IMG/VR virus record: IMGVR_UViG_2698536392_000015
Coordinates: 1 to 53,751 of that record
Length of the DNA: 53,751 nt
DNA from: a virus
Lineage: Duplodnaviria > Heunggongvirae > Uroviricota > Caudoviricetes
Direction: 5' to 3' (one strand)
How positions within the stretch are numbered: position 1 is the first letter of the stretch; every line of letters begins with the position of its first letter. The position numbers and the translations under genes were made by a program. The notes under the pieces are model-generated. The model saw only the letters and a list, made by a program, of their open reading frames with translations. It ran no database searches and was not told where the DNA came from. Shown piece after piece: positions 4,310 to 47,171 of this stretch.

Positions 4310-4588
4310 TTAGGGAAACTGGCGTCTTGCGTGGATCACGTTTACTACTTCAACGCTTGATGTTGTTACGCGGTATAGAATTATATAGTTAGGGTGGGCT
4401 ACAATCTCACGCAAGCCAGGTACTCTGTCGCTTGGTGGGTATAAATACGGATGTTCGGATAACGGCAGCACACAACCCCTTAATCGCTGCCATAAGCGTT
4501 CAGCCGCATCTATGTCGAAACGAGCAATATAACTAGTTATATCATCTAGGTCGGTATCTGCGCTTTCAAGCCATAACACGGGTAACAT
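4310..4588 (-). CDS. ParE/RelE-family type II toxin
   Basis: C-terminal ...NYIILYRVTTSSVEVVNVIHARR pattern typical of ParE/RelE toxins; ATG at 4588 lies 1 nt after the antitoxin stop. Confidence 0.7.
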   Translation of the reverse strand: MLPVLWLESADTDLDDITSYIARFDIDAAERLWQRLRGCVLPLSEHPYLYPPSDRVPGLREIVAHPNYIILYRVTTSSVEVVNVIHARRQFP

Positions 4589-4589
4589 T

Positions 4590-4781
4590 TTACTGCTTGC
4601 TCCGTTCCTTGCGCATCTTAGCAAAGCGTTCTGCCATTCTGCGCTCAACTTCGTCATGGGGAATTGCTGGGCGCGGATCTGCAAGGCTCGTTGCTACTTT
4701 CGCACGCAGCCATTCGTTGTAACTGTTTTCTTGTTCAATGGTTTCAAATTCAGAAACCATTGGTGAAAGGGCTCTATTCAT
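4590..4781 (-). CDS. Cognate antitoxin (ParD-like), 63 aa
   Basis: Start MNRALSP at 4781 preceded by GGAGGA; small, directly upstream of and coupled to the toxin. Confidence 0.6.
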   Translation of the reverse strand: MNRALSPMVSEFETIEQENSYNEWLRAKVATSLADPRPAIPHDEVERRMAERFAKMRKERSKQ

Positions 4782-4801
4782 GTTTCCTCCGGTTTTATAA
4801 C

Positions 4802-5173
4802 TCAGGCGCGGCGGCATTTTTGCGCCGCAATCCATCTCGCTATGAGATCTTCCATTGATTCTTTTTTCTGCTTTAACTCGCTGATTATCTGGCGTTGCTC
4901 ATCCTCAGGGAAGGCTGAAAAAATCTGCAATAATTCCAGTTGATTAGACGTTAACCCTGCATGTGGTGGAGAACCCCCCGGTTGTTCTGCGTATTCCGCA
5001 TCCAGATACCCTTCCGGCATCCCGTATGTTTGCTCTATTCTTCTGGCAGCCTTTTCTCCAAACGAGGCTCTCCCACTCATTAGTTGAGATAGGTAGCTCT
5101 TCTCTTTGGGTGGCAGAGTTTTATCTTTAAACCACTCCTTGAGACGTAAACGGCGAATTTCTTTTTTTTGCAT
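4802..5173 (-). CDS. Prophage immunity repressor, DicA-like HTH protein
   Basis: HTH region (SYLSQLMSGRASFGEKAARRIE) and C-terminal LELLQIFSAFPEDEQ resembling DicA as recalled; divergent from a Cro-like gene. Confidence 0.65.
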   Translation of the reverse strand: MQKKEIRRLRLKEWFKDKTLPPKEKSYLSQLMSGRASFGEKAARRIEQTYGMPEGYLDAEYAEQPGGSPPHAGLTSNQLELLQIFSAFPEDEQRQIISELKQKKESMEDLIARWIAAQKCRRA

Positions 5174-5270
5174 GTGGTAATTATCTTTAGTAATCACTAA
5201 ACAAGCAAATACTTGACTTAATGGTTTATCAAACACTAAACTCGCAAAAAAACACTAAACCGAGGAAGGT
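5174..5270. promoter_or_regulatory. Divergent promoter/operator region of the immunity switch
   Basis: Three CACTAAAC repeats (5193, 5232, 5250) and an inverted repeat TTTAGT-N4-ACTAAA (5179-5194) between divergent repressor and Cro-like genes. Confidence 0.5.
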
Positions 5271-5573
5271 ATGACATTAAAAGAGTTTATTAAATCATTA
5301 AGGGTTGGTGATGCTAAGAAATTCGCGGCCAGACTTGGTGTATCGCCATCTTACTTATCGCAAATGGCGTCTGGACGAACAGCTATATCTCCAACCCGCG
5401 CCCTTATGATCGAATCTGCGACGGAAGGCCAAGTAAGTAGGGCGGAGCTACGACCCCATGATTGGGAGCTTATTTGGCCTGAGTATGCGAGCGGCATTCG
5501 TTTGGGGCAAACACATGTAGTTCATGCTGAAGGTGATTGTAGTGCATGCTTATCTGATGGAGTTGATTCATGA
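5271..5573 (+). CDS. Cro/YdaS-like HTH regulator
   Basis: HTH motif (AARLGVSPSYLSQMASGR); divergent from repressor; RBS GAGGAAGG. Confidence 0.6.
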   Translation: MTLKEFIKSLRVGDAKKFAARLGVSPSYLSQMASGRTAISPTRALMIESATEGQVSRAELRPHDWELIWPEYASGIRLGQTHVVHAEGDCSACLSDGVDS

Positions 5574-5995
5574 AAATCAAGCATGAACACATCCGCATGG
5601 CGATGAATGTCTGGGCGCATCCGGACGGCGAAAAAGTACCGGCTGCGAAAATTACCAAAGCGTATTTCGAGCTGGGAATGACGTTCCCGGAACTGTACGA
5701 CGACAGCCATCCGGAAGCCCTGGCCCGTAATACCCAGAAAATTTTCCGCTGGGTGGAGAAGGACACCCCTGATGCTGTTGAAAAAATTCAGGCTCTGTTA
5801 CCGGCGATCGAAAAGGCGATGCCGCCTTTGCTGGTGGCCCGTATGCGCAGCCACAGTTCTGAATATTACCGTGAGATCGTCGAACGGAGGGATCGGCTGG
5901 TGAAGGATGTCGATGATTTTGTTGCGTCAGCGGTTGTTTTGTATGACCAGATGAATCGCGGCGGCCCGGCAGGGAATGCTGTGGTGATGCACTAA
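5570..5995 (+). CDS. YdaT-like prophage protein (141 aa)
   Basis: N-terminal MKIKHEH and size match my recollection of Rac YdaT; position after the Cro-like gene. Confidence 0.45.
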   Translation: MKIKHEHIRMAMNVWAHPDGEKVPAAKITKAYFELGMTFPELYDDSHPEALARNTQKIFRWVEKDTPDAVEKIQALLPAIEKAMPPLLVARMRSHSSEYYREIVERRDRLVKDVDDFVASAVVLYDQMNRGGPAGNAVVMH

Positions 5996-6002
5996 AAGCA
6001 CG

Positions 6003-6980
6003 GTGTTCGGGGGTTTTATGAGCAGCAAGCTTCATGGTCTTGTCTGGGAAGGGTGCGCCTTCACCGGCATGATCTTATCCAGGGTGGCGGTTATGGCCCG
6101 TCTTGCAGACTACAGCAATGACGAGGGCGTGTCATGGCCTGCCATTGAAACTATCCGGCGTCAGATCGGTGCAAGAAGTGAATCCACAGTGAAATCGGCT
6201 ATTGCAGAACTGGCGAAAGAGGGCTGGCTGACGAAGGAAGAGCGTAAGGTCGGTGGGCGTAATGTAAGCAATATCTATCGGCTTAATGTGGAAAAACTCG
6301 AAGCAGCTGCGGCGGCGGCGCGTGAGTCATATAAACCAAAAAGAAAAATTAGCCCGGCAAAAAATGACCCGTTAACAGTTGACCCGTCAAATATTGACCC
6401 CTCAACGGTTGACCCGTCAAATTTTGATGGATCAACTGTTGATAAAAAACTGCCGATTAGGGGGGCGATGATTGACCCCGATCCGTCAGTATTAAAACCT
6501 GATCCGTCAGATAAAAGATCTTCTTGTCCGGACGCTTCGCAACCGGACCCGCAGACGGCTGAACAGGATTTTTTAACCCGACACCCTGACGCGGTTGTGT
6601 TCAGTGCGAAAAAACGCCAGTGGGGAAGTCAGGAAGATTTGGTGTGCGCACAGTGGATCTGGGGACGAATCGTGAGTCTTTACGAGCAGGCGGCCAGCTA
6701 TGATGGCGAGATCACTAGACCGAAAGAACCCAACTGGACAGCATGGGCCAATGACGTTCGCACAATGCGGATGCTGGATGGCAGAACTCACAGACAAATT
6801 TGTGAAATGTTTGGGCGTCTCCAGCGGGATTCGTTCTGGGTAAAAAACATCATGAGTCCGGCAAAACTCCGGGAAAAATGGGATGAACTGGTTATCCGCC
6901 TGGGGCGTTCGCCTGCGCAGCGTTGCGTGAATCACATTTCTGAACCGGACACTGAAATTCCGCCGGGCTTCAGGGGGTAA
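6003..6980 (+). CDS. Putative replication initiator / replisome organiser (O-like)
   Basis: N-terminal winged-helix-like region; coding sequence contains iteron-like direct DNA repeats; lies in the replication-gene position. Confidence 0.5.
   Translation: MFGGFMSSKLHGLVWEGCAFTGMILSRVAVMARLADYSNDEGVSWPAIETIRRQIGARSESTVKSAIAELAKEGWLTKEERKVGGRNVSNIYRLNVEKLEAAAAAARESYKPKRKISPAKNDPLTVDPSNIDPSTVDPSNFDGSTVDKKLPIRGAMIDPDPSVLKPDPSDKRSSCPDASQPDPQTAEQDFLTRHPDAVVFSAKKRQWGSQEDLVCAQWIWGRIVSLYEQAASYDGEITRPKEPNWTAWANDVRTMRMLDGRTHRQICEMFGRLQRDSFWVKNIMSPAKLREKWDELVIRLGRSPAQRCVNHISEPDTEIPPGFRG
6362..6515. repeat. Iteron-like direct repeats (candidate replication origin) inside the replication gene
   Basis: TTGACCCGTCAA-like 12-13 bp units repeated at about 6378, 6393, 6408 and 6423, with degenerate copies to about 6510, followed by an A-rich stretch. 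Confidence 0.45.
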
Positions 6981-7020
6981 GTGTTAATTTCTGGTCATGA
7001 GGTAATTTTCAGGAGGGCTT

Positions 7021-7242
7021 GTGGCAAAAGTTTTTACACAAGAAGAGCGGGAAAAAATTAAAGGGCAGGTTGTTGAACTCGTACGCCAGAGTGGGCGCGA
7101 GACGTTACGACAACTGGAAACTAAAACTGGGGCAACAAGATATCTGATAAGCGTTCTGGCCAGAGAGCTGGTTGCCAGTGGCGATGTATACAACTCTGGT
7201 TACGGGTTATTCCCGTCTGAACAGGCGCGTAAGGACTGGTAA
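7021..7242 (+). CDS. Hypothetical small protein (73 aa)
   Basis: Track ORF; coding-like sequence continues in frame after the TAA stop. Confidence 0.3.
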   Translation: MAKVFTQEEREKIKGQVVELVRQSGRETLRQLETKTGATRYLISVLARELVASGDVYNSGYGLFPSEQARKDW

Positions 7243-7439
7243 AATGCCCGTAAAAAGCTCTCAAGGGCAAAGCCGAAGAAACCATCTGCGGTTGATCCGG
7301 ACCTTATCTGGTCATTACCAGATGGCGAAATACGCCGCTACGACAGGCGTCTGAACATAATCTGTCTCGAGTGCCGGAAGGGCGAAGTTATGCAGCGCGT
7401 ACTGGCGTTTTATCAGGGGAATTTTGAGGAGGTGGTGCG

Positions 7440-7694
7440 GTGAGTGAATCAAAATGCCAGGTTAATGGCAACAAGATAGAACCATGTGCAGCACTGGCAA
7501 AGTCCCTTGAGCATGATGCTGAATACACGATGCGAAAAGGTCTGTTGATATACAAAATCTGGAATGAGAGTTTAACTCGCGGTCCTGATTTTGTGATGTT
7601 GCGTTCCGGTGAATTTTCTAAATTACCAGTTCGGGTTTCATTTTGTCCGTTCTGTGGTGAAAGTCTGAAAACGTGGGAGAACAGAAATGAATGA
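7440..7694 (+). CDS. Hypothetical small Cys-containing protein (84 aa)
   Basis: Track ORF; C-terminal CPFCGE motif. Confidence 0.4.
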   Translation: MSESKCQVNGNKIEPCAALAKSLEHDAEYTMRKGLLIYKIWNESLTRGPDFVMLRSGEFSKLPVRVSFCPFCGESLKTWENRNE

Positions 7695-7998: not shown

Positions 7999-8130
7999 AG
8001 GCTATAAACCGACTAACAACTAAATACTGAAGATTTAAATCAGAAACGATTTTTATTAAATCCTTAACCGGAGGGATTCCTGCACCCTCAAATCATCAGG
8101 AGGCCGCCCGAAAGGGCGGTGGAGATAATA

Positions 8131-8652
8131 ATGGGAATAACTAAAGAACGATTGTTGGAAATAGCAAACCTTAGTGATTGGGCATTAAGTGATGAGAGAA
8201 TTGTTTCTCCTCATGCTTATGAGTCAGTTACAAGTATAGAAATAACAACAATGGCTAGAATGCTGCTTGGTTATTTCAAAATAGAAAATAAAAAACAGAT
8301 GGATAGTAATGTTGATATATGTGAGATTTTAGACGATTGGGGGGCTTGGGTTGTGGCTGGTAATAGTTCTATTGATTGGCAGGAAATAGCTGATAAATAT
8401 AAAAATGTTGTTCCTCATGGTAAAAAATCACGTCGTCAGTGCAGCAATGATGAAGGGCGAATTATTGACATTAGTATCCTTAGGTTAGAAAGATATAAGC
8501 AACAAGAATATGAGTTAATTGTTGCTCATTTCGTGATTGGTTTATCTCTTCGTGCTATTGCAAAGCAACAAGGATGTTCAGATGGAACAATTCGTAAAAG
8601 ATTGCAAAAAGCCTTAGGTTTTTTGACTGGATATATAGCAATTACCAGTTAA
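8131..8652 (+). CDS. Late antiterminator Q-like protein
   Basis: WGAW motif, conserved RRQC stretch and C-terminal HTH-like ...SDGTIRKRLQKALG pattern resembling phage-82-type Q as recalled; ATG 8131 with GGTGGAG RBS. Confidence 0.6.
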   Translation: MGITKERLLEIANLSDWALSDERIVSPHAYESVTSIEITTMARMLLGYFKIENKKQMDSNVDICEILDDWGAWVVAGNSSIDWQEIADKYKNVVPHGKKSRRQCSNDEGRIIDISILRLERYKQQEYELIVAHFVIGLSLRAIAKQQGCSDGTIRKRLQKALGFLTGYIAITS

Positions 8653-9290
8653 GAGTCAGCGGTTTTTTTACCAGTGTAATGGTATAAGGATACTCCCATG
8701 TGTCTTACATGATATGGAAGCGCTGTTGCTGGATGCTTTGTGATACTCTTAAAGCGGAGGGGAGAGCCTTCCGCTTCAATTTCTGCGTCCGAAACGGTCG
8801 TAGAGAAAAATTCTTTCCATTCATTGAATTTTACTGCTGATTTGTCAGACTTTATATAAATTAGAATTCCTCCATGATCGTCACGTGACGTACCCGTGCC
8901 GTAACGTTCGGTTAGCTGAATCCAGCCATTATGAATAGATTTGGGGCCTCTCCATAATTTTGCTTCACCGATCCATTCGAATTTTCCGAATTGATGTTTA
9001 ACTAATAAATCAACGTGACCGCCATGTTGAGTATCATGTTCAACATCATAAAACCTACCTTTCAGGAAATTTTTGATCGACGCTGTTAGCTCGTCCTCTC
9101 CCCACTTAGCATCTTGATAGAAGTGTTTGTCATTTTCTAAATTCTGAATAGCGTCGTCTAAATCTTCATAGAGTTGCTTTACAAAAATATTTTTGTCTGC
9201 AGCTAATTTTCTTTGAACCATTCCCCTAAATTCAGGATCCATTCTAATTAATGATTGAAGGTCTGCAGTACAGATGTTTACATCACTCAT
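8649..9290 (-). CDS. Hypothetical protein with PD-(D/E)xK nuclease-like motif, gene 3 of a three-gene operon
   Basis: GHVDLL...GEAK spacing compatible with a PD-(D/E)xK core; start MSDVNIC at 9290 with GGAGAG RBS; overlaps the upstream gene stop. Confidence 0.5.
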   Translation of the reverse strand: MSDVNICTADLQSLIRMDPEFRGMVQRKLAADKNIFVKQLYEDLDDAIQNLENDKHFYQDAKWGEDELTASIKNFLKGRFYDVEHDTQHGGHVDLLVKHQFGKFEWIGEAKLWRGPKSIHNGWIQLTERYGTGTSRDDHGGILIYIKSDKSAVKFNEWKEFFSTTVSDAEIEAEGSPLRFKSITKHPATALPYHVRHMGVSLYHYTGKKTADS

Positions 9291-9711
9291 GCAGACTCTC
9301 CAAAAGACTCGAAGGAGTAAAGTATGGATAAAGATACTGGCTAAAATTATCAACCAATTCGCCAGTTTCTGGATGGTAAAAACTTCCTGTGTCTAAAGCA
9401 TAGGAAATAAGATCATCTTCAACTGGTATTGGTTCTTCCGTTAAATTATCAATGTATTGAAAATGCATATCCAATAGATGTGCTTTATAGCTAGATAAAT
9501 AATCAGTTGCTTTTATTAGCAGGATATAGTCATCTTTCGTATCAGTTAGATAGGTTAAACCATTGATAAGGGTTTTGTATGTAAAGTGATTGATATTTTT
9601 AGCATCTTTACTAACCAGAAAAAGAAAAAGATCACGACACACACTGCGAACAGGATCATTAAAATCCTGCTCTATTTGCGTGATAATGTCGTGATATATA
9701 CTCTTTTTCAT
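9283..9711 (-). CDS. Hypothetical protein (142 aa), gene 2 of the operon
   Basis: ATGA start/stop overlap with gene 1; AT-rich; no recognisable motif. Confidence 0.5.
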   Translation of the reverse strand: MKKSIYHDIITQIEQDFNDPVRSVCRDLFLFLVSKDAKNINHFTYKTLINGLTYLTDTKDDYILLIKATDYLSSYKAHLLDMHFQYIDNLTEEPIPVEDDLISYALDTGSFYHPETGELVDNFSQYLYPYFTPSSLLESLHE

Positions 9712-10799
9712 TTATGGCCTGATGATCTCGCTCTTCTTTTCTCTTCACAGGACTTAACAGAATCCAATATTTTTTCAACAATAAATATAATCGAATCAAT
9801 GTTGTTACAGTTCTTCGCAATTGCTTCATGCAACCTAATTCTAGGATTATCAAGCATTGTCCTTTTTCCTGGTAATATTAACTCTACTGATAAAATATGT
9901 GAAGAACTTTGTGGTAAATCCCAAATTTTTCCCAACTTAAACTTTGTCAATATTGGGCTTGCGGACTCTCCACTATGATGGTAAACATCTTGACGCAAAC
10001 ACTTTTGACTTGGTTTGAGTTTTAAAGAACTTGTATTGCCATCTGAGGTGATAAAAGATACATGAGAAATTCTGCCATCTACTTTTTCGTAAAGAACTTG
10101 TATTGAACCAAATAATTCAAGAGGATTGTTTAAAATAACGCCAGCTTCTTTTTTTATAAATTTAGCCACAAGGTATTGTTGAGGCTGTGATTCACTTCTT
10201 GGAAGGATAGATAAATCAATCGTAAGAATTAATATTTTTTCTGCAGGCATTAGCATGATGGTATTAAAGCATTGCGTGACTTGGCGTGTTTTGCATTTTA
10301 TTTCTCCACCATTAGCACGTAATTCCATACCCGCATCGCTAAGATGTGTTGGGTCAAGCTCTATCACTTCAGTGTAATACGCTTTGGATAAAAAAACAGC
10401 AGTGTCAATTTGTTTATCACGAATGATATCTTGACGTAGTTCAGCAAAATGCAGCTCAGTATCAGCAACTAACAGCTCCTCTCTGGATAAAGGAGTTGGG
10501 TATTTTTCTGAGAAGGGGCTATTGTCCTTTTTCTGATTTGTGAAAATTGTTTGTAATTTTGCTACGTCTTCATCGGTGATTCTATAAATAGAAAGTAATC
10601 GATTCCCGCTAAAAATTAAACCTTTCCAGAAATCGTCGATTCTGTCTTTTAGGTCGGGATTATGCTGAACTACACTATTTACACGTTCAATAAAAAGGGG
10701 TAATCCTTGGGCCGTTACACCCAGTGATGAACCAAGAAGCTTACGGGTGTTGCGCCAGCCAAAGCGTGAATTGATGTTTTTTACTGTTTGCTCAAGCAT
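9708..10799 (-). CDS. Hypothetical protein (363 aa), gene 1 of the operon
   Basis: ATG at 10799 with AGGAAG RBS 5 nt upstream; no nucleotide-binding or other recognisable motif. Confidence 0.5.
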   Translation of the reverse strand: MLEQTVKNINSRFGWRNTRKLLGSSLGVTAQGLPLFIERVNSVVQHNPDLKDRIDDFWKGLIFSGNRLLSIYRITDEDVAKLQTIFTNQKKDNSPFSEKYPTPLSREELLVADTELHFAELRQDIIRDKQIDTAVFLSKAYYTEVIELDPTHLSDAGMELRANGGEIKCKTRQVTQCFNTIMLMPAEKILILTIDLSILPRSESQPQQYLVAKFIKKEAGVILNNPLELFGSIQVLYEKVDGRISHVSFITSDGNTSSLKLKPSQKCLRQDVYHHSGESASPILTKFKLGKIWDLPQSSSHILSVELILPGKRTMLDNPRIRLHEAIAKNCNNIDSIIFIVEKILDSVKSCEEKRRARSSGHK

Positions 10800-11145
10800 T
10801 AACACTTCCTTAATTTTCCCTTAACAATTTAGGGTGCTAAACTTTTTTGCGCAGTTTACATAAAAAAATAGTGCGTACGCAAAAACTATCTAACATGATG
10901 AGCTTTAACCGGGAAATTTGTATATGTTGTGAGCATAAAGTTGGCTGAGAAATCTAAAACGGGTAGAATGACTGCGGGTGCTTGAGGCTATCTGTCTCAG
11001 GCATGAACACCAAAAGGCAGATAGAGAAAAGCCCCAGTTAACATTACGCGTCCGGCAAGACGCTTAACATTAATCTGAGGCCATATCTATGCTCTACACA
11101 CGTAGGTTAGCCTCTTACGTGCCGAAAGGCAAGGAGAAGCAGGCT

Positions 11146-12776: not shown

Positions 12777-13388
12777 TTAACCAACAACATTTTTCTTTAC
12801 TGTCACTGCCCCTGATTCCTGGGTGGCGTTATTGCTCGAGTTGTACTTCTCAATAACGCGCAAAATCTCTTTGTCTGTTTCTTCACTTCCCGCCATTCCT
12901 ATCTTTATTGCATTTTTTAGTACGGGACGTAATGGCAAGGCATCAATGATGCTTTCTACCGCATCCTGGCTGATTGTAGATGTATTCATTGCTGCCAGCC
13001 TGACAAGGTTGTTAGTACCTTCTCGCCTGATGAATGTAAGGATTAATTGCTTCTCTTGGGGGCTTAGAGAGCTAAGCGCCTGATCAATACCCGAACCTGA
13101 ATCGCAATTATTTTCGATTTTTCCGCATTCATCTTCGTTCTTGCCTGTGGCCAACCATTCGAGTGAACAATTACAGGCTTTAGCTATTAAGGCCAGTTTA
13201 TCCAAAGGAGGGAAGTTTTTCCCCTTCCTGTAATTTCTTACTGTGGCTTCAGATAGTCCACAAAGGGTCGCCAGTTCGACGTTTGTCATGTCTCCCATAG
13301 CCATAGCTAAGCGTTCTGAAAATCGGTTTATTCCTTCCATATCAATAAACCGTTCCGCACTGGATACGGTTTTTTCTGCCTTATCCAT
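12777..13388 (-). CDS. Mu-like prophage repressor (XRE-type HTH)
   Basis: HTH (MTNVELATLCGLSEATVRNYRKGK); leftward gene at the left end, divergent from ner. Confidence 0.7.
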   Translation of the reverse strand: MDKAEKTVSSAERFIDMEGINRFSERLAMAMGDMTNVELATLCGLSEATVRNYRKGKNFPPLDKLALIAKACNCSLEWLATGKNEDECGKIENNCDSGSGIDQALSSLSPQEKQLILTFIRREGTNNLVRLAAMNTSTISQDAVESIIDALPLRPVLKNAIKIGMAGSEETDKEILRVIEKYNSSNNATQESGAVTVKKNVVG

Positions 13389-13821: not shown

Positions 13822-15912
13822 ATGTGGGTAACAGCAAAAGAATGTGTTGGTCTTCCTGATTTACCAATGATGGAACATAACATTCGCCATCGACTCACAA
13901 AAGCAGCTGCGGGAAATGCAGCCATGTTACGCAAACGTAAGGGGACAAAAGCAATCGAATTTAATATCGATTGTTTGCCTTCTGGCGCGCAACAAGTATT
14001 GCGTGAACGTTATGCCCTTCAACTGATGACGCAAAAAGCCGATGAATCACCGGCTCCGGTGGTGACAAAGGCCAGACGCTCGCCTGCCGTGGTTGATGCG
14101 GTGGAGGCATATCGCGGATCACCACAACTGATGGTTGAACGCCTTAATGCCCTGACTGAAAACCAGCGCCAGGTGGCTGATGCACGAATCGCGATCGTCA
14201 GCGAAGTGATGAAAGTCGCGCAACAACCCGGTTTCAGCTGTGCGAAAGCTATCCGGTTTATCGTTGACAACCTGGCACGTTCGCAGCTGGACGAGCGCAT
14301 TGTGGCAATGGTTGAGACGGCGAACGCCAAAAAGGGAAACAGCCGCGCGTTGAGTGAAATCACGCTGAAACGCTGGATTGCAGCCTTTAACAAGGCGCAG
14401 AACGCCGCCGAACGCCTGCTTTTACTGGCACCGGGTAAGCGCCAGGAAATAAAAGCCGAAGATATTAACTGGCTGCCCGAATTTCTGGCGCAGTATCGCC
14501 AGTCAAACGGCCGACCAATGACCGAGGCTTACGAGGATTTTGTCGCTGAATGGCAGCACCGGCACGCTGATGAGCCTTATATGCTCGATATCATGCCGTC
14601 TTATGACACCATTCGCCGCGCAATGAAGAAACTGCCGGAAGTGGTGAAACAAAAAGGCCGGGTGACCGGCAGTGAATACCGCCAGCTTGAGGGATTCACG
14701 CGCCGCGACTGGTCAAAAATGCCGGTGAATTATGTCTGGATTGGTGACGGTCACGGCATGAAGCTGAAATGCGCACACCCGGTTCACGGTCGGCCATTTG
14801 CACCGGAAGTGACCTTTGTTATCGACGGTGGCACGCGCTTTGTGGTGGGCTGGAGCCTTGACCTGGCTGAAAATGTTTTCGCCGTAGCCGGTGCCATACA
14901 GCACGGCATTCGCCATCACGGCAAACCGTTTCTGTATTACTCGGATAACGGCTCCGGGGAAACCGCCGACATCCTGGATAAGGAGGTTGTGGGGATACTG
15001 CCGCGACTGGGGATTAATCACCCGACCGGGATTGCCGGTAATCCGCAGGGACGAGGCATTATCGAACGGCTTAACCGCACATTACCGATGCGCATAGCCC
15101 GTAAATACCGCACCTATTTCGGGAAAGGTGCAGATCGCGAGACGTTACGCAAAACCAACCGCGATTTACGCTCGGCATTTACTGCCCTGCAACAGGGCAA
15201 ACGGCTGAACGCCCGGCAGCAGTCAGCGATGCGTGATTTACCGTCCTGGTCTGAACTGATTGATGCCATTCGTGACGGTGTTGAGTGGTACAACAACCGG
15301 CCGCACGATGAATTACCCATGAAGCCGAACGGGAAACATTACAGCCCGGCGGAGTTCAGAAAAAAACGCCTGGCGGAAGAGGACACTGAAATTGAATGGC
15401 TGTCCGATGTTGAGCTGCGGGATATGTTCCGGCCGATGGTGGAACGCCCTGTAAGACGCTGTGAAATACGCTGGCTGAATAATATTTACTACGCGCCCGA
15501 GCTGCGTGACGAGCATGGCCGCAAGGTGCTTATCAGCTATGACATTCATGATGCCGAACGAATTACCGTTCGTCGCCCGGATGGCAGCGTGATTTGCGAG
15601 GCGGTATGGGACGGCAATAAACGCGAAGCCTTCCCGGTCAGCGCGGAATACTACAAACAGCAGCAGCGCCTTAAAGGTATGCGTAAACGCGCAGAGGAAA
15701 AAATCCGTGATGCCGAGGATGAGGTTGTCAACGTGCTGGAGCACAAGCCGCAGGAGCCATGGCTGGAAAACATATACCGCCCTGTGGGTAATACGGTGAC
15801 CGTTCAGCGACCAGCCGTTGATGATGAACCTGATGAAGAATACGAGCGTAATTTCCAGCGGGGATTGCAGTTGCTGGAAGCGAAATTAAAAGAAAATGAC
15901 CCGCTGGCCTGA
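13822..15912 (+). CDS. Mu-type DDE transposase
   Basis: 696 aa; N-terminal WVTAKECVGLPDLP resembles the MuA N-terminus; position and size match MuA. Confidence 0.9.
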   Translation: MWVTAKECVGLPDLPMMEHNIRHRLTKAAAGNAAMLRKRKGTKAIEFNIDCLPSGAQQVLRERYALQLMTQKADESPAPVVTKARRSPAVVDAVEAYRGSPQLMVERLNALTENQRQVADARIAIVSEVMKVAQQPGFSCAKAIRFIVDNLARSQLDERIVAMVETANAKKGNSRALSEITLKRWIAAFNKAQNAAERLLLLAPGKRQEIKAEDINWLPEFLAQYRQSNGRPMTEAYEDFVAEWQHRHADEPYMLDIMPSYDTIRRAMKKLPEVVKQKGRVTGSEYRQLEGFTRRDWSKMPVNYVWIGDGHGMKLKCAHPVHGRPFAPEVTFVIDGGTRFVVGWSLDLAENVFAVAGAIQHGIRHHGKPFLYYSDNGSGETADILDKEVVGILPRLGINHPTGIAGNPQGRGIIERLNRTLPMRIARKYRTYFGKGADRETLRKTNRDLRSAFTALQQGKRLNARQQSAMRDLPSWSELIDAIRDGVEWYNNRPHDELPMKPNGKHYSPAEFRKKRLAEEDTEIEWLSDVELRDMFRPMVERPVRRCEIRWLNNIYYAPELRDEHGRKVLISYDIHDAERITVRRPDGSVICEAVWDGNKREAFPVSAEYYKQQQRLKGMRKRAEEKIRDAEDEVVNVLEHKPQEPWLENIYRPVGNTVTVQRPAVDDEPDEEYERNFQRGLQLLEAKLKENDPLA

Positions 15913-15983: not shown

Positions 15984-16916
15984 ATGACTGATATTAACGA
16001 TGTAATCAAGACCATTGATGAACTTATTGATGGCGGCGTACTGACGCAGTATGCCATCGCCAGAGAGGCGGGAATTTCCGACGGCACATTATCGGCTTTC
16101 CGTAAGGGAAAATATAAAGGCGATAACGCTGCTGTGGCTGCTTCCCTGTGTTCCTGGTATGAGAACTGGAATAAACAAAGCGCACTGCCGGAACCGCCGC
16201 AGTTTGTGGAAACGCAGACAGTCCAGGAGCTGCGCGCGCTGTTTCAGGCGGTTCGCCTGATGGGCTGTATTAACGTTATTGTGGGCGTGCCGGGGGTAGG
16301 TAAAACGGCCACCGCCCGTAATTACTGCCAGGAGCAACCAAACACCTGGATGATCACCCTGTCTCCCGCGCATTCCAGCGTCACGGAGTGTCTGCTGGAG
16401 CTGGCCGATGCGCTGGGGATTGATTACACCCGCGCGAACAAGGGGGCATTATCCCGCGCCATCCGCCGTCGCCTGATGGGAACGCGTGGACTGGTGATTG
16501 TGGATGAGGCGGATCATCTTGGTATTGACGGTCTGGAGCAACTCCGGGCAATTCAGGACGCCACGGGGATCGGGATGGTGCTTATTGGTAACCCGCGCGG
16601 ATTGTTTAAAGGTGGACGCCGCGCCTTTGATGATTTATCGCGCCTGTTCAGCCGTCTTGCCCGTACAAAACAACTTCGCAAGGCCAAAAAGGCGGATGTG
16701 CTGGCCATTGCCAGGGCGTGGGGTATCAGTGGTGAGGCCGAGCTGGCTGTCATGCAGGCTATCGCTGAAAAACCGGGAGCATTACGTGTTTTGACGCATA
16801 CGCTTAACCAGGCGTGGATCACCGCCAGCGGTGAAGGTGCGGCGCTGACAGAAAAACATATTAATGCGGCTTTTAAAGAGGTTTACACCAACCCTGAATT
16901 ACTCTCGCAGGTGTGA
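15984..16916 (+). CDS. MuB-like AAA+ ATPase transposition protein
   Basis: Walker A GVPGVGKT, Walker B LVIVDEAD; follows the transposase gene. Confidence 0.9.
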   Translation: MTDINDVIKTIDELIDGGVLTQYAIAREAGISDGTLSAFRKGKYKGDNAAVAASLCSWYENWNKQSALPEPPQFVETQTVQELRALFQAVRLMGCINVIVGVPGVGKTATARNYCQEQPNTWMITLSPAHSSVTECLLELADALGIDYTRANKGALSRAIRRRLMGTRGLVIVDEADHLGIDGLEQLRAIQDATGIGMVLIGNPRGLFKGGRRAFDDLSRLFSRLARTKQLRKAKKADVLAIARAWGISGEAELAVMQAIAEKPGALRVLTHTLNQAWITASGEGAALTEKHINAAFKEVYTNPELLSQV

Positions 16917-46610: not shown

Positions 46611-47171
46611 ATGCTGATTGGCTATATACGCGTATCAACAAATGACCAGAACACCGGTTTACAAAGAAATGCGCTGGAATGTGCAGGATGTGAGCAGATT
46701 TTTGAAGACAAAATGAGCGGAAAAACAACGCAGCGGCCGGGACTGAAGCGGGCACTGAAGAAACTAAAACCCGGTGACACACTGATGGTCTGGAAACTGG
46801 ACAGGCTGGGGCGCAGTATGCGCCACCTTGTTGCGCTGACAGATGAATTACAGCAACAGGGGATAAATTTTCGTAGTCTTACTGACAACATTGATACGTC
46901 AACCCCCATGGGGCGCTTCTTTTTTCACATAATGGGTGCGCTGGCAGAAATGGAGCGTGAATTAATTGTCGAACGGACACGGGCTGGTCTTGCAGCTGCC
47001 CGTGAAAGGGGACGAACCGGCGGCAGACCCCGCCGTCTCACGCAGGAACAATACGAGCAGGTTGGGCGTTTACTGGCCGGGGGTGTCAGTCGAAGACAGG
47101 TGGCACTTATTTTTGATATCGGCCTTTCAACCCTTTATCGTTATTATCCTGCGAGCGTTTCGGAAAAATAA
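46611..47171 (+). CDS. gin: Serine DNA invertase (Gin/Hin/Pin/Cin family)
   Basis: N-terminal MLIGYIRVSTNDQNT...RNALECAGCEQIFEDK and C-terminal HTH match Mu Gin as recalled; adjacent to the invertible segment. Confidence 0.9.
   Translation: MLIGYIRVSTNDQNTGLQRNALECAGCEQIFEDKMSGKTTQRPGLKRALKKLKPGDTLMVWKLDRLGRSMRHLVALTDELQQQGINFRSLTDNIDTSTPMGRFFFHIMGALAEMERELIVERTRAGLAAARERGRTGGRPRRLTQEQYEQVGRLLAGGVSRRQVALIFDIGLSTLYRYYPASVSEK

Follow-up and report, generated by a model that had tools for sequence, protein, structure and literature searches.

Replication origins that lie inside an O-like initiator gene are known from phages phi80, 82, 434 and 21 and from gene 18 of P22, the repeats being specific to each phage and matching the N-terminal half of its initiator. 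In the lambda paradigm, iterons and an AT-rich tract in the central part of the gene for O constitute the origin, and the number of iterons differs between phages; lambda ori comprises four 18-bp dyad iterons together with an AT-rich tract, and there are six iterons in the origins of the Stx phages 933W and P27 (PMC7466680). A further origin, oriJ of the Rac prophage in E. coli K-12, has been reported to be active (PMC3945230). In prophage CP-933P/Sp12 of E. coli O157:H7, which has an immunity region matching the one described here, this gene has been referred to only as 'a homolog of the o gene' (PMC8630535).

The stretch of DNA analysed here (53,751 nucleotides in total, referred to below as the window) includes an initiator gene with an internal array of short repeats, and the host element of the putative origin is a lambdoid (Rac/CP-933P-like) prophage. 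From sequence comparison and analogy with lambda, it is likely that the array is the iteron part of a lambda-type intragenic origin and that it would be bound by the N-terminal winged-helix domain of the protein encoded by the same gene. No prior description of these repeats was found in the literature on lambdoid iterons, Sp12/CP-933P, SfII, SfIV, ST64B or phi80, a weak negative as subscription journals were mostly outside the search, and TGACCCGTCA was not found in a phage context in the literature searched.

The initiator gene and its product

The gene is currently annotated only as encoding a 'helix-turn-helix domain-containing protein'. The ORF finder placed its start at a GTG codon (6003; 325 aa), but as relatives begin MSSKL the true start is probably the ATG at 6018. 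With an E value of 2e-115 the product matched phrog_391 ('replication initiation O-like'), and aa 30-76 of the 325-aa ORF matched Pfam HTH_36 (E 2e-6). The protein was 99% identical to a protein cluster with 3163 member sequences. The gene and the domains of its product are as follows:

6018-6980, + strand: replication initiator gene, 320 aa from the ATG at 6018 (phrog_391, HTH_36)
6018-6332, + strand: predicted N-terminal winged-helix DNA-binding domain, aa 1-105 (AlphaFold2 model)
6339-6545, + strand: predicted disordered linker holding all of the sites, aa 108-176 (AlphaFold2 pLDDT <50)
6549-6908, + strand: lambda-O-like C-terminal domain, aa 178-297 (BLASTP against lambda O; AlphaFold2)

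In the AlphaFold2 model, which was computed with a 40-sequence alignment, the N-terminal domain consists of helices followed by a beta-hairpin wing (mean pLDDT of 75-90 in 10-residue blocks), and the C-terminal domain is confident over most of its range (block means of about 70-91). The best PDB fold matches were weak (E 5e-3) and were to winged-helix regulators of the MarR/PadR/ArsR type; the fold search with the whole model therefore supports a winged helix but gives no more precise assignment.

The C-terminal domain shares homology with that of lambda O (residues about 170-280): in a BLASTP alignment of 119 columns, residues 182-300 of the window protein were 39% identical to lambda O residues 171-277 (E 5e-26). 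However, the N-terminal domain is of a different type, HTH_36 rather than Phage_rep_O (PF04492). Lambda O matched PF04492 with an E value of 6e-36, whereas the window protein had no PF04492 match, and no N-terminal alignment between the two proteins was found using BLASTP.

The last ~20 residues of the initiator (aa 300-320; window 6915-6977) weakly resemble the C-terminal tail of DnaT, with marginal matches to PDB entries 2ru8, 6aep and 9zbt in a PDB sequence search (E 0.01-0.03). This DnaT-like tail may be the source of the 'primosomal protein I' annotations of relatives, and the resemblance hints at a contact with the host primosome.

An array of dyad repeats within the linker-coding region

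Direct reading of the sequence identified five TTGA-N4-TCAA dyads at 6364-6435 with a period of exactly 15 bp. Positions 6364-6449 read ATGACCCGTTAAcag TTGACCCGTCAAata TTGACCCCTCAAcgg TTGACCCGTCAAatt TTGATGGATCAActg TTGATAAAAAA, and the 12-bp repeat cores, with the half-site that follows them, are:

6364-6375, unstranded: iteron 1, degenerate (ATGACCCGTTAA)
6379-6390, unstranded: iteron 2, TTGA-N4-TCAA dyad (TTGACCCGTCAA)
6394-6405, unstranded: iteron 3 (TTGACCCCTCAA)
6409-6420, unstranded: iteron 4 (TTGACCCGTCAA)
6424-6435, unstranded: iteron 5, half-sites retained and spacer different (TTGATGGATCAA)
6439-6449, unstranded: terminal half-site and A6 tract (TTGATAAAAAA), inside the low-stability 30-mer 6419-6448

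The start-to-start distance of the cores is 15 bp throughout, and Tandem Repeats Finder reported 5 copies with a period of 15, together with a 30-bp super-period (score 101). The array is repeated far beyond chance, four exact TGA-N4-TCA sites falling within 60 bp when the biggest cluster in 2000 block shuffles of the window was two. A search of the rest of the 53.7-kb window for the 12-mer with up to two mismatches gave a single chance-level match at 46891 and no second motif cluster. In relatives, the arrays likewise end in a half-site followed by an A-tract (A5-6).

A preliminary description of this DNA had recorded direct repeats spaced at about 15 bp inside the initiator gene (6362-6515) and encoding a peptide repeat of the DPxxVDPS type. 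Both features are borne out, the spacing being exact and the units lying in frame within the initiator ORF, where they encode NDPLT VDPSN IDPST VDPSN FDGST VDKKL, a series of xDPSx units. Overlooked at that stage were the dyad symmetry of each unit and the presence of two more related sites (GATCCGTCAG) downstream of the array, with which the locus has five TTGA-N4-TCAA and two CTGA/GGA-TCCG-TCAG sites.

As in lambda ori, the repeats have internal dyad symmetry and lie in the central part of the initiator gene. The annotated iterons of lambda are at O codons 117-144 and are followed by an A-rich tract, and the repeats in the window are at codons 116-145; with the downstream sites included they occupy codons 116-165, in the predicted linker (aa 108-176) between the N-terminal DNA-binding and C-terminal domains. 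The dimensions differ, as the lambda iterons are 18 bp long and spaced at 20-24 bp, whereas those in the window are 12 bp long with a strict 15-bp period, so that half-sites alternate with hardly a break and each period spans a whole number of codons. The result is a near-continuous ladder of alternating TTGA and TCAA half-sites, 8 and 7 bp apart from centre to centre.

Conservation of the repeats in related loci

A scan of one genome per species identified 80 loci encoding a related N-terminal domain, in Escherichia, Shigella, Enterobacter, Kosakonia, Yersinia, Providencia, Proteus, Erwinia, Edwardsiella, Morganella and other genera. All intact loci were found to carry 15-bp units at the equivalent place and in the same frame, and two subfamilies were distinguished.

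In the larger, phiNP-like subfamily (301 units from 64 non-redundant loci, with N-terminal domains that are 68-100% identical pairwise), the unit is TCTGAC-NNN-TCAAAA. Its three synonymous third positions are T, A and A at frequencies of 0.90, 0.91 and 0.86 (1.4-1.55 bits), compared with an average of 0.62 bits for the third positions of amino-acid columns conserved at 90% or more in the part of these genes that encodes the N-terminal domain. Of the two Ser residues in the unit, the first is encoded by TCT and the second by TCA, codons that make up 10% and 18%, respectively, of the Ser codons in the rest of these ORFs, and invariant Ser columns in the N-terminal domain use four to six different codons. 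The middle codon, which forms the spacer of the dyad, is free (Ala, Pro, Thr, Gly, Val or Arg).

In the subfamily to which the window belongs, 33 units from 8 loci fit TTGA-N4-TCAA with no more than one mismatch. Fourteen of these units have the spacer CCCC and nine have its complement, GGGG, so that one dyad is present in both orientations, TTGACCCCTCAA encoding DPS and TTGAGGGGTCAA encoding EGS. Altogether, the units encode 16 different pentapeptides (DPS, DPP, EGS, EGL, GVS and others), and only the EGS form was found in Morganella. As both orientations occur and the peptide shifts, it is the DNA that is conserved; on comparison of these units, inversion of a protein-binding DNA dyad explains their variation and a peptide motif cannot. 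The encoded linker peptide, from both the alignments and the structural model, looks like a tolerated by-product.

Alternatively, the repeats might belong to the protein, whose linker, flexible or functional, would have a DPS-type repeat that the DNA merely mirrors. The units are indeed in frame, they read xDPSx in the window, and a single frame is used in all relatives. However, synonymous positions are more conserved than non-synonymous ones, the two Ser residues use different fixed codons, the peptide shifts to EGS, EGL or GVS while the DNA dyad is kept, and copy number varies in this region, for which disorder is predicted, making a protein-level explanation very improbable. The possibility that homologues conserve the repeats only at the protein level, raised in the preliminary description as the observation that would count against an origin, is contradicted by the retention of the DNA, synonymous positions included, in the face of a varying peptide. 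The suggestion made there that DNA and protein function may be coupled was not supported, given a peptide of predicted disorder in which both the sequence and the number of copies vary.

Close relatives in E. coli have two to five units, and the lengths of their proteins change in steps of five residues. Units can be gained or lost without a frameshift because the 15-bp period is a multiple of three (five codons). In lambda and the Stx phages 933W and P27, too, the number of iterons varies between relatives, and protein residues are added or removed with them. Enlarged arrays of about 9-12 units were found in Edwardsiella anguillarum (locus L013) and in a Providencia metagenome-assembled genome (locus L064), and in both the expansion involved duplicated 45-bp or 75-bp blocks of units.

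Variation in copy number among close relatives is also what would be expected of a neutral minisatellite generated by slippage and lacking any function. However, the register and the core persist from Escherichia to Providencia, Yersinia and Erwinia, over distances at which the synonymous sites of the adjoining domain are saturated, and this explanation has the least to recommend it of all those considered.

GATC-bearing sites downstream of the array

Two conserved sites related to the iterons follow the array:

6472-6489, unstranded: first conserved downstream site, a TTGACCCC half-site adjoining GATCCGTCAG (6480-6489); carries GATC
6499-6510, unstranded: second conserved downstream site, CTGATCCGTCAG, also written cTGATCCGTCAg, a perfect CTGA-N4-TCAG dyad with its GATCCGTCAG part at 6501-6510; carries GATC

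The first was found as GATCC(G/A)T(C/T)A at the equivalent place in 69 of 69 relatives, its Asp codon always being GAT. The second directly precedes a mosaic breakpoint detected using megablast (gene position 511, corresponding to window position 6513). Lambda ori has no counterpart of these two added sites.

The window has four GATC (Dam) sites within 91 bp (6430, 6480, 6501 and 6517), its densest GATC cluster. The GAT codon for Asp that creates GATC at the two downstream sites is present in 69 and ~60 of the 69 relatives, respectively, and the Asp codon inside the array is mostly GAC. The cluster and the fixed GAT codons suggest either control by Dam/SeqA or a distinct type of site. Clusters of GATC are located near the opening site in P1 oriR and in oriC.

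Modular inheritance of the N-terminal domain and repeats

Breakpoints were found using megablast at gene positions 478 and 511, just past the repeats, and gene positions 1-510 (N-terminal domain and sites) and 478/511-978 (C-terminal domain) have separate histories. The C-terminal part alone is common to many phages and prophages (73-92% identity). On these comparisons, the repeats are passed on with the N-terminal domain as a single mosaic module, and other N-terminal types are accompanied by other repeats at the same place. In lambda too, a single specificity module is made up of the N-terminal domain and its iterons.

Repeats were also found in the genes for more distant O-like initiators:

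L093, 1844-1917: Qin-like initiator, prophage in DH5alpha; 23-bp repeats, 3.2 copies
L089, 1738-1801: O of Stx phage Min27
L091, 1722-1820: gp14 of Pectobacterium phage ZF40
L092, 1712-1778: initiator of Vibrio phage D67

The Qin-like initiator has the same C-terminus as the window protein and an unrelated N-terminus, and its own repeats are in the same position. The initiators of Min27, ZF40 and D67 are distant HTH_36 proteins, each with different 22-24-bp tandem repeats that start no more than about 20 bp beyond the winged-helix domain. By sequence, all four sets of repeats are candidate origins.

Covariation between the iterons and the N-terminal domain was considered as an argument for specificity within the close family and was set aside, the differences between subfamilies being too small. 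The two subfamilies share the TGA/TCA core and differ mainly at one flanking base (TTGA versus CTGA) and in the composition of the spacer; in the sequences compared, covariation is weak within the close family and clear only against the distant relatives.

The mosaic breakpoints directly after the GATCCGTCAG sites, together with the GATC cluster (the densest in the window, four sites in 91 bp) and the GAT codon fixed in 69 of 69 relatives, raise the question of whether the sites are recognised by something other than the initiator (a host protein, Dam/SeqA or the Cro/CII-like regulators, for instance) or are linker DNA that promotes modular recombination among lambdoid phages. However, the repeat type changes with the N-terminal type across distant initiators, as expected if the sites are the initiator's own, and a recombination linker has no need of five phased dyads. 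Dam/SeqA may act additionally at the GATC sites, but this would leave TTGA-N4-TCAA unexplained, and another factor or a recombination linker is accordingly a poor candidate for the main role of the sites.

Stability of the DNA around the array

The three least stable 30-mers of the gene (6323-6352, 6419-6448 and 6490-6519) flank the array. The first of these is:

6323-6352, unstranded: A-rich segment of low stability flanking the array on its left (TGAGTCATATAAACCAAAAAGAAAAATTAG), the second least stable 30-mer in 5200-7500

Its dG is -32.2, compared with a mean of -41.3 (sd 3.3) for 30-mers in 5200-7500. In the other subfamily this segment is not conserved. A lambda-like AT-rich block of ~40 bp was sought and not found, the gene having instead a short A6 tract and the three low-stability 30-mers, and the AT-rich element near the array is weak. 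The preliminary description had placed an A-rich tract after the repeats; such a tract is present but is short, consisting of A6 at 6444-6449. If the array is an origin, 6323-6352 could be its unwinding element, though the exact place at which the DNA would open is a guess.

The weakness of the AT-rich element would also fit a role of the sites in autoregulation, with the bound initiator acting as a roadblock to or repressor of its own transcript or of downstream genes and the true origin being elsewhere in the prophage. Intragenic operator arrays can regulate, and all that follows from the dyad symmetry and the conservation of the DNA is that something binds here. However, the 53.7-kb window has no second cluster of the motif, the array matches lambda ori in position and architecture, the corresponding sites form the origin in lambda (PMC7466680), and the C-terminal domain is a homologue of that of lambda O. 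Autoregulation in place of an origin is therefore considered unlikely, and an autoregulatory role is in any case compatible with an origin role.

Genetic context and distribution

Genes for YdaS (Cro-like) and YdaT (CII-like) are located between the PaaR2/RacR-like repressor locus and the initiator gene. The repressor locus is part of a group of minus-strand genes encoding a ParE2-like toxin (4310-4684), a PaaA2-like antitoxin (4590-4835) and a PaaR2/RacR-like regulator (4802-5236), and the order at 4310-5236 is that of the paaR2-paaA2-parE2 locus of CP-933P.

The neighbourhood is of the same type as that of oriJ in the Rac prophage of E. coli K-12, in which a racR-like repressor gene, ydaS, ydaT, the initiator gene and ydaV are found. 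Identity with oriJ was nevertheless rejected, as the K-12 initiator, YdaU, is a DUF1376 protein unrelated to the HTH_36 domain and O-like C-terminus found here. By sequence comparison, the array in the window belongs to a replication module different from that of K-12 Rac at the same position.

No helicase-loader gene was found 3' of the initiator gene in the window (6980-7440), which, unlike lambda, has no P gene. Relatives use a DnaC-type loader, and at the equivalent place in two of them (L001 and L002) are ydaV, encoding a DnaC-type ATPase, a DUF1627 gene and a full DUF977 gene. In the window, the initiator gene is followed by a 73-aa ORF (7021-7242) whose match covers only the first half of DUF977. 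This loader-less layout is common to 136 E. coli genomes.

A Mu-like prophage extends from 12777. It opens with a minus-strand repressor gene (12777-13388), which is followed by genes for a transposase of the MuA type (13822-15912) and a protein of the MuB type (15984-16916). The lambdoid element with the array seems to be a short remnant adjoining, or interrupted by, this Mu-like (transposable) prophage, and for this reason this copy of the origin may be inactive or silent. Just past a Q-like antiterminator gene (8119-8652) are three adjacent minus-strand ORFs (8649-10805; 234, 142 and 365 aa) that match PHROGs of unknown function (9664, 11490 and 12777) and could be cargo or defence genes.

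Of 5426 complete E. coli genomes, 1514 had at least 80% of the initiator gene, and relatives of the initiator were found in the Shigella phages SfII and SfIV and in Klebsiella and Yersinia phages.

Discussion

The similarity to lambda ori within gene O proposed in the preliminary description is supported by the position of the repeats, their dyads, the mosaic module that they form with the N-terminal domain, the homology of the C-terminal domains and conservation at the DNA level. In the iteron plasmids (pPS10 RepA, R6K pi and P1 RepA), direct repeats are bound by a winged-helix initiator. However, their iterons, usually of 17-22 bp and in helical phasing, are not part of the rep gene, whereas the repeats in the window are intragenic, and a Rep_3-type domain was not detected in the window initiator in a Pfam search.

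By analogy with lambda, we infer that the initiator is the protein that binds the array and that replication starts here. Dimers of its N-terminal winged-helix domain would bind the TTGA-N4-TCAA dyads, and the five closely packed 15-bp sites and the two GATC-bearing sites downstream would nucleate a multimeric initiator-DNA complex. This complex would destabilise the flanking low-stability A-rich stretch, and the lambda-O-like C-terminal domain would bring in the host helicase, which would be loaded by the DnaC-type loader in relatives and presumably by host DnaC in the case of the window. As the sites are written in a stretch that encodes a disordered linker, the constraint on the DNA would be cheap for the protein.

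More speculatively, and with a low chance of being correct, the initiator may form a continuous filament with ~1.4 helical turns per dimer, a geometry unlike that of the lambda O-some; firing may be controlled by Dam/SeqA via the fixed downstream GATC sites; and the frame-neutral gain and loss of units may allow the strength of the origin to evolve quickly with no harm to the protein.

The design is that of the textbook, and the understanding of phage replication is unchanged by it. Particular to this family are the motif, the strict 15-bp period that is compatible with codons, the HTH_36 N-terminal domain and the fixed GATC sites. The genes are a clean case of overlapping codes, in which conservation is stronger at third codon positions than in the amino acids. 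The analysis provides a candidate origin and candidate recognition motifs, TTGA-N4-TCAA in the subfamily of the window and TCTGAC-N3-TCAAAA in the sister subfamily, for an initiator family that is very common in the prophages of Enterobacterales. These should be useful for annotation and for predicting replication incompatibility between prophages, and they call for caution when such genes are recoded or codon-optimised.
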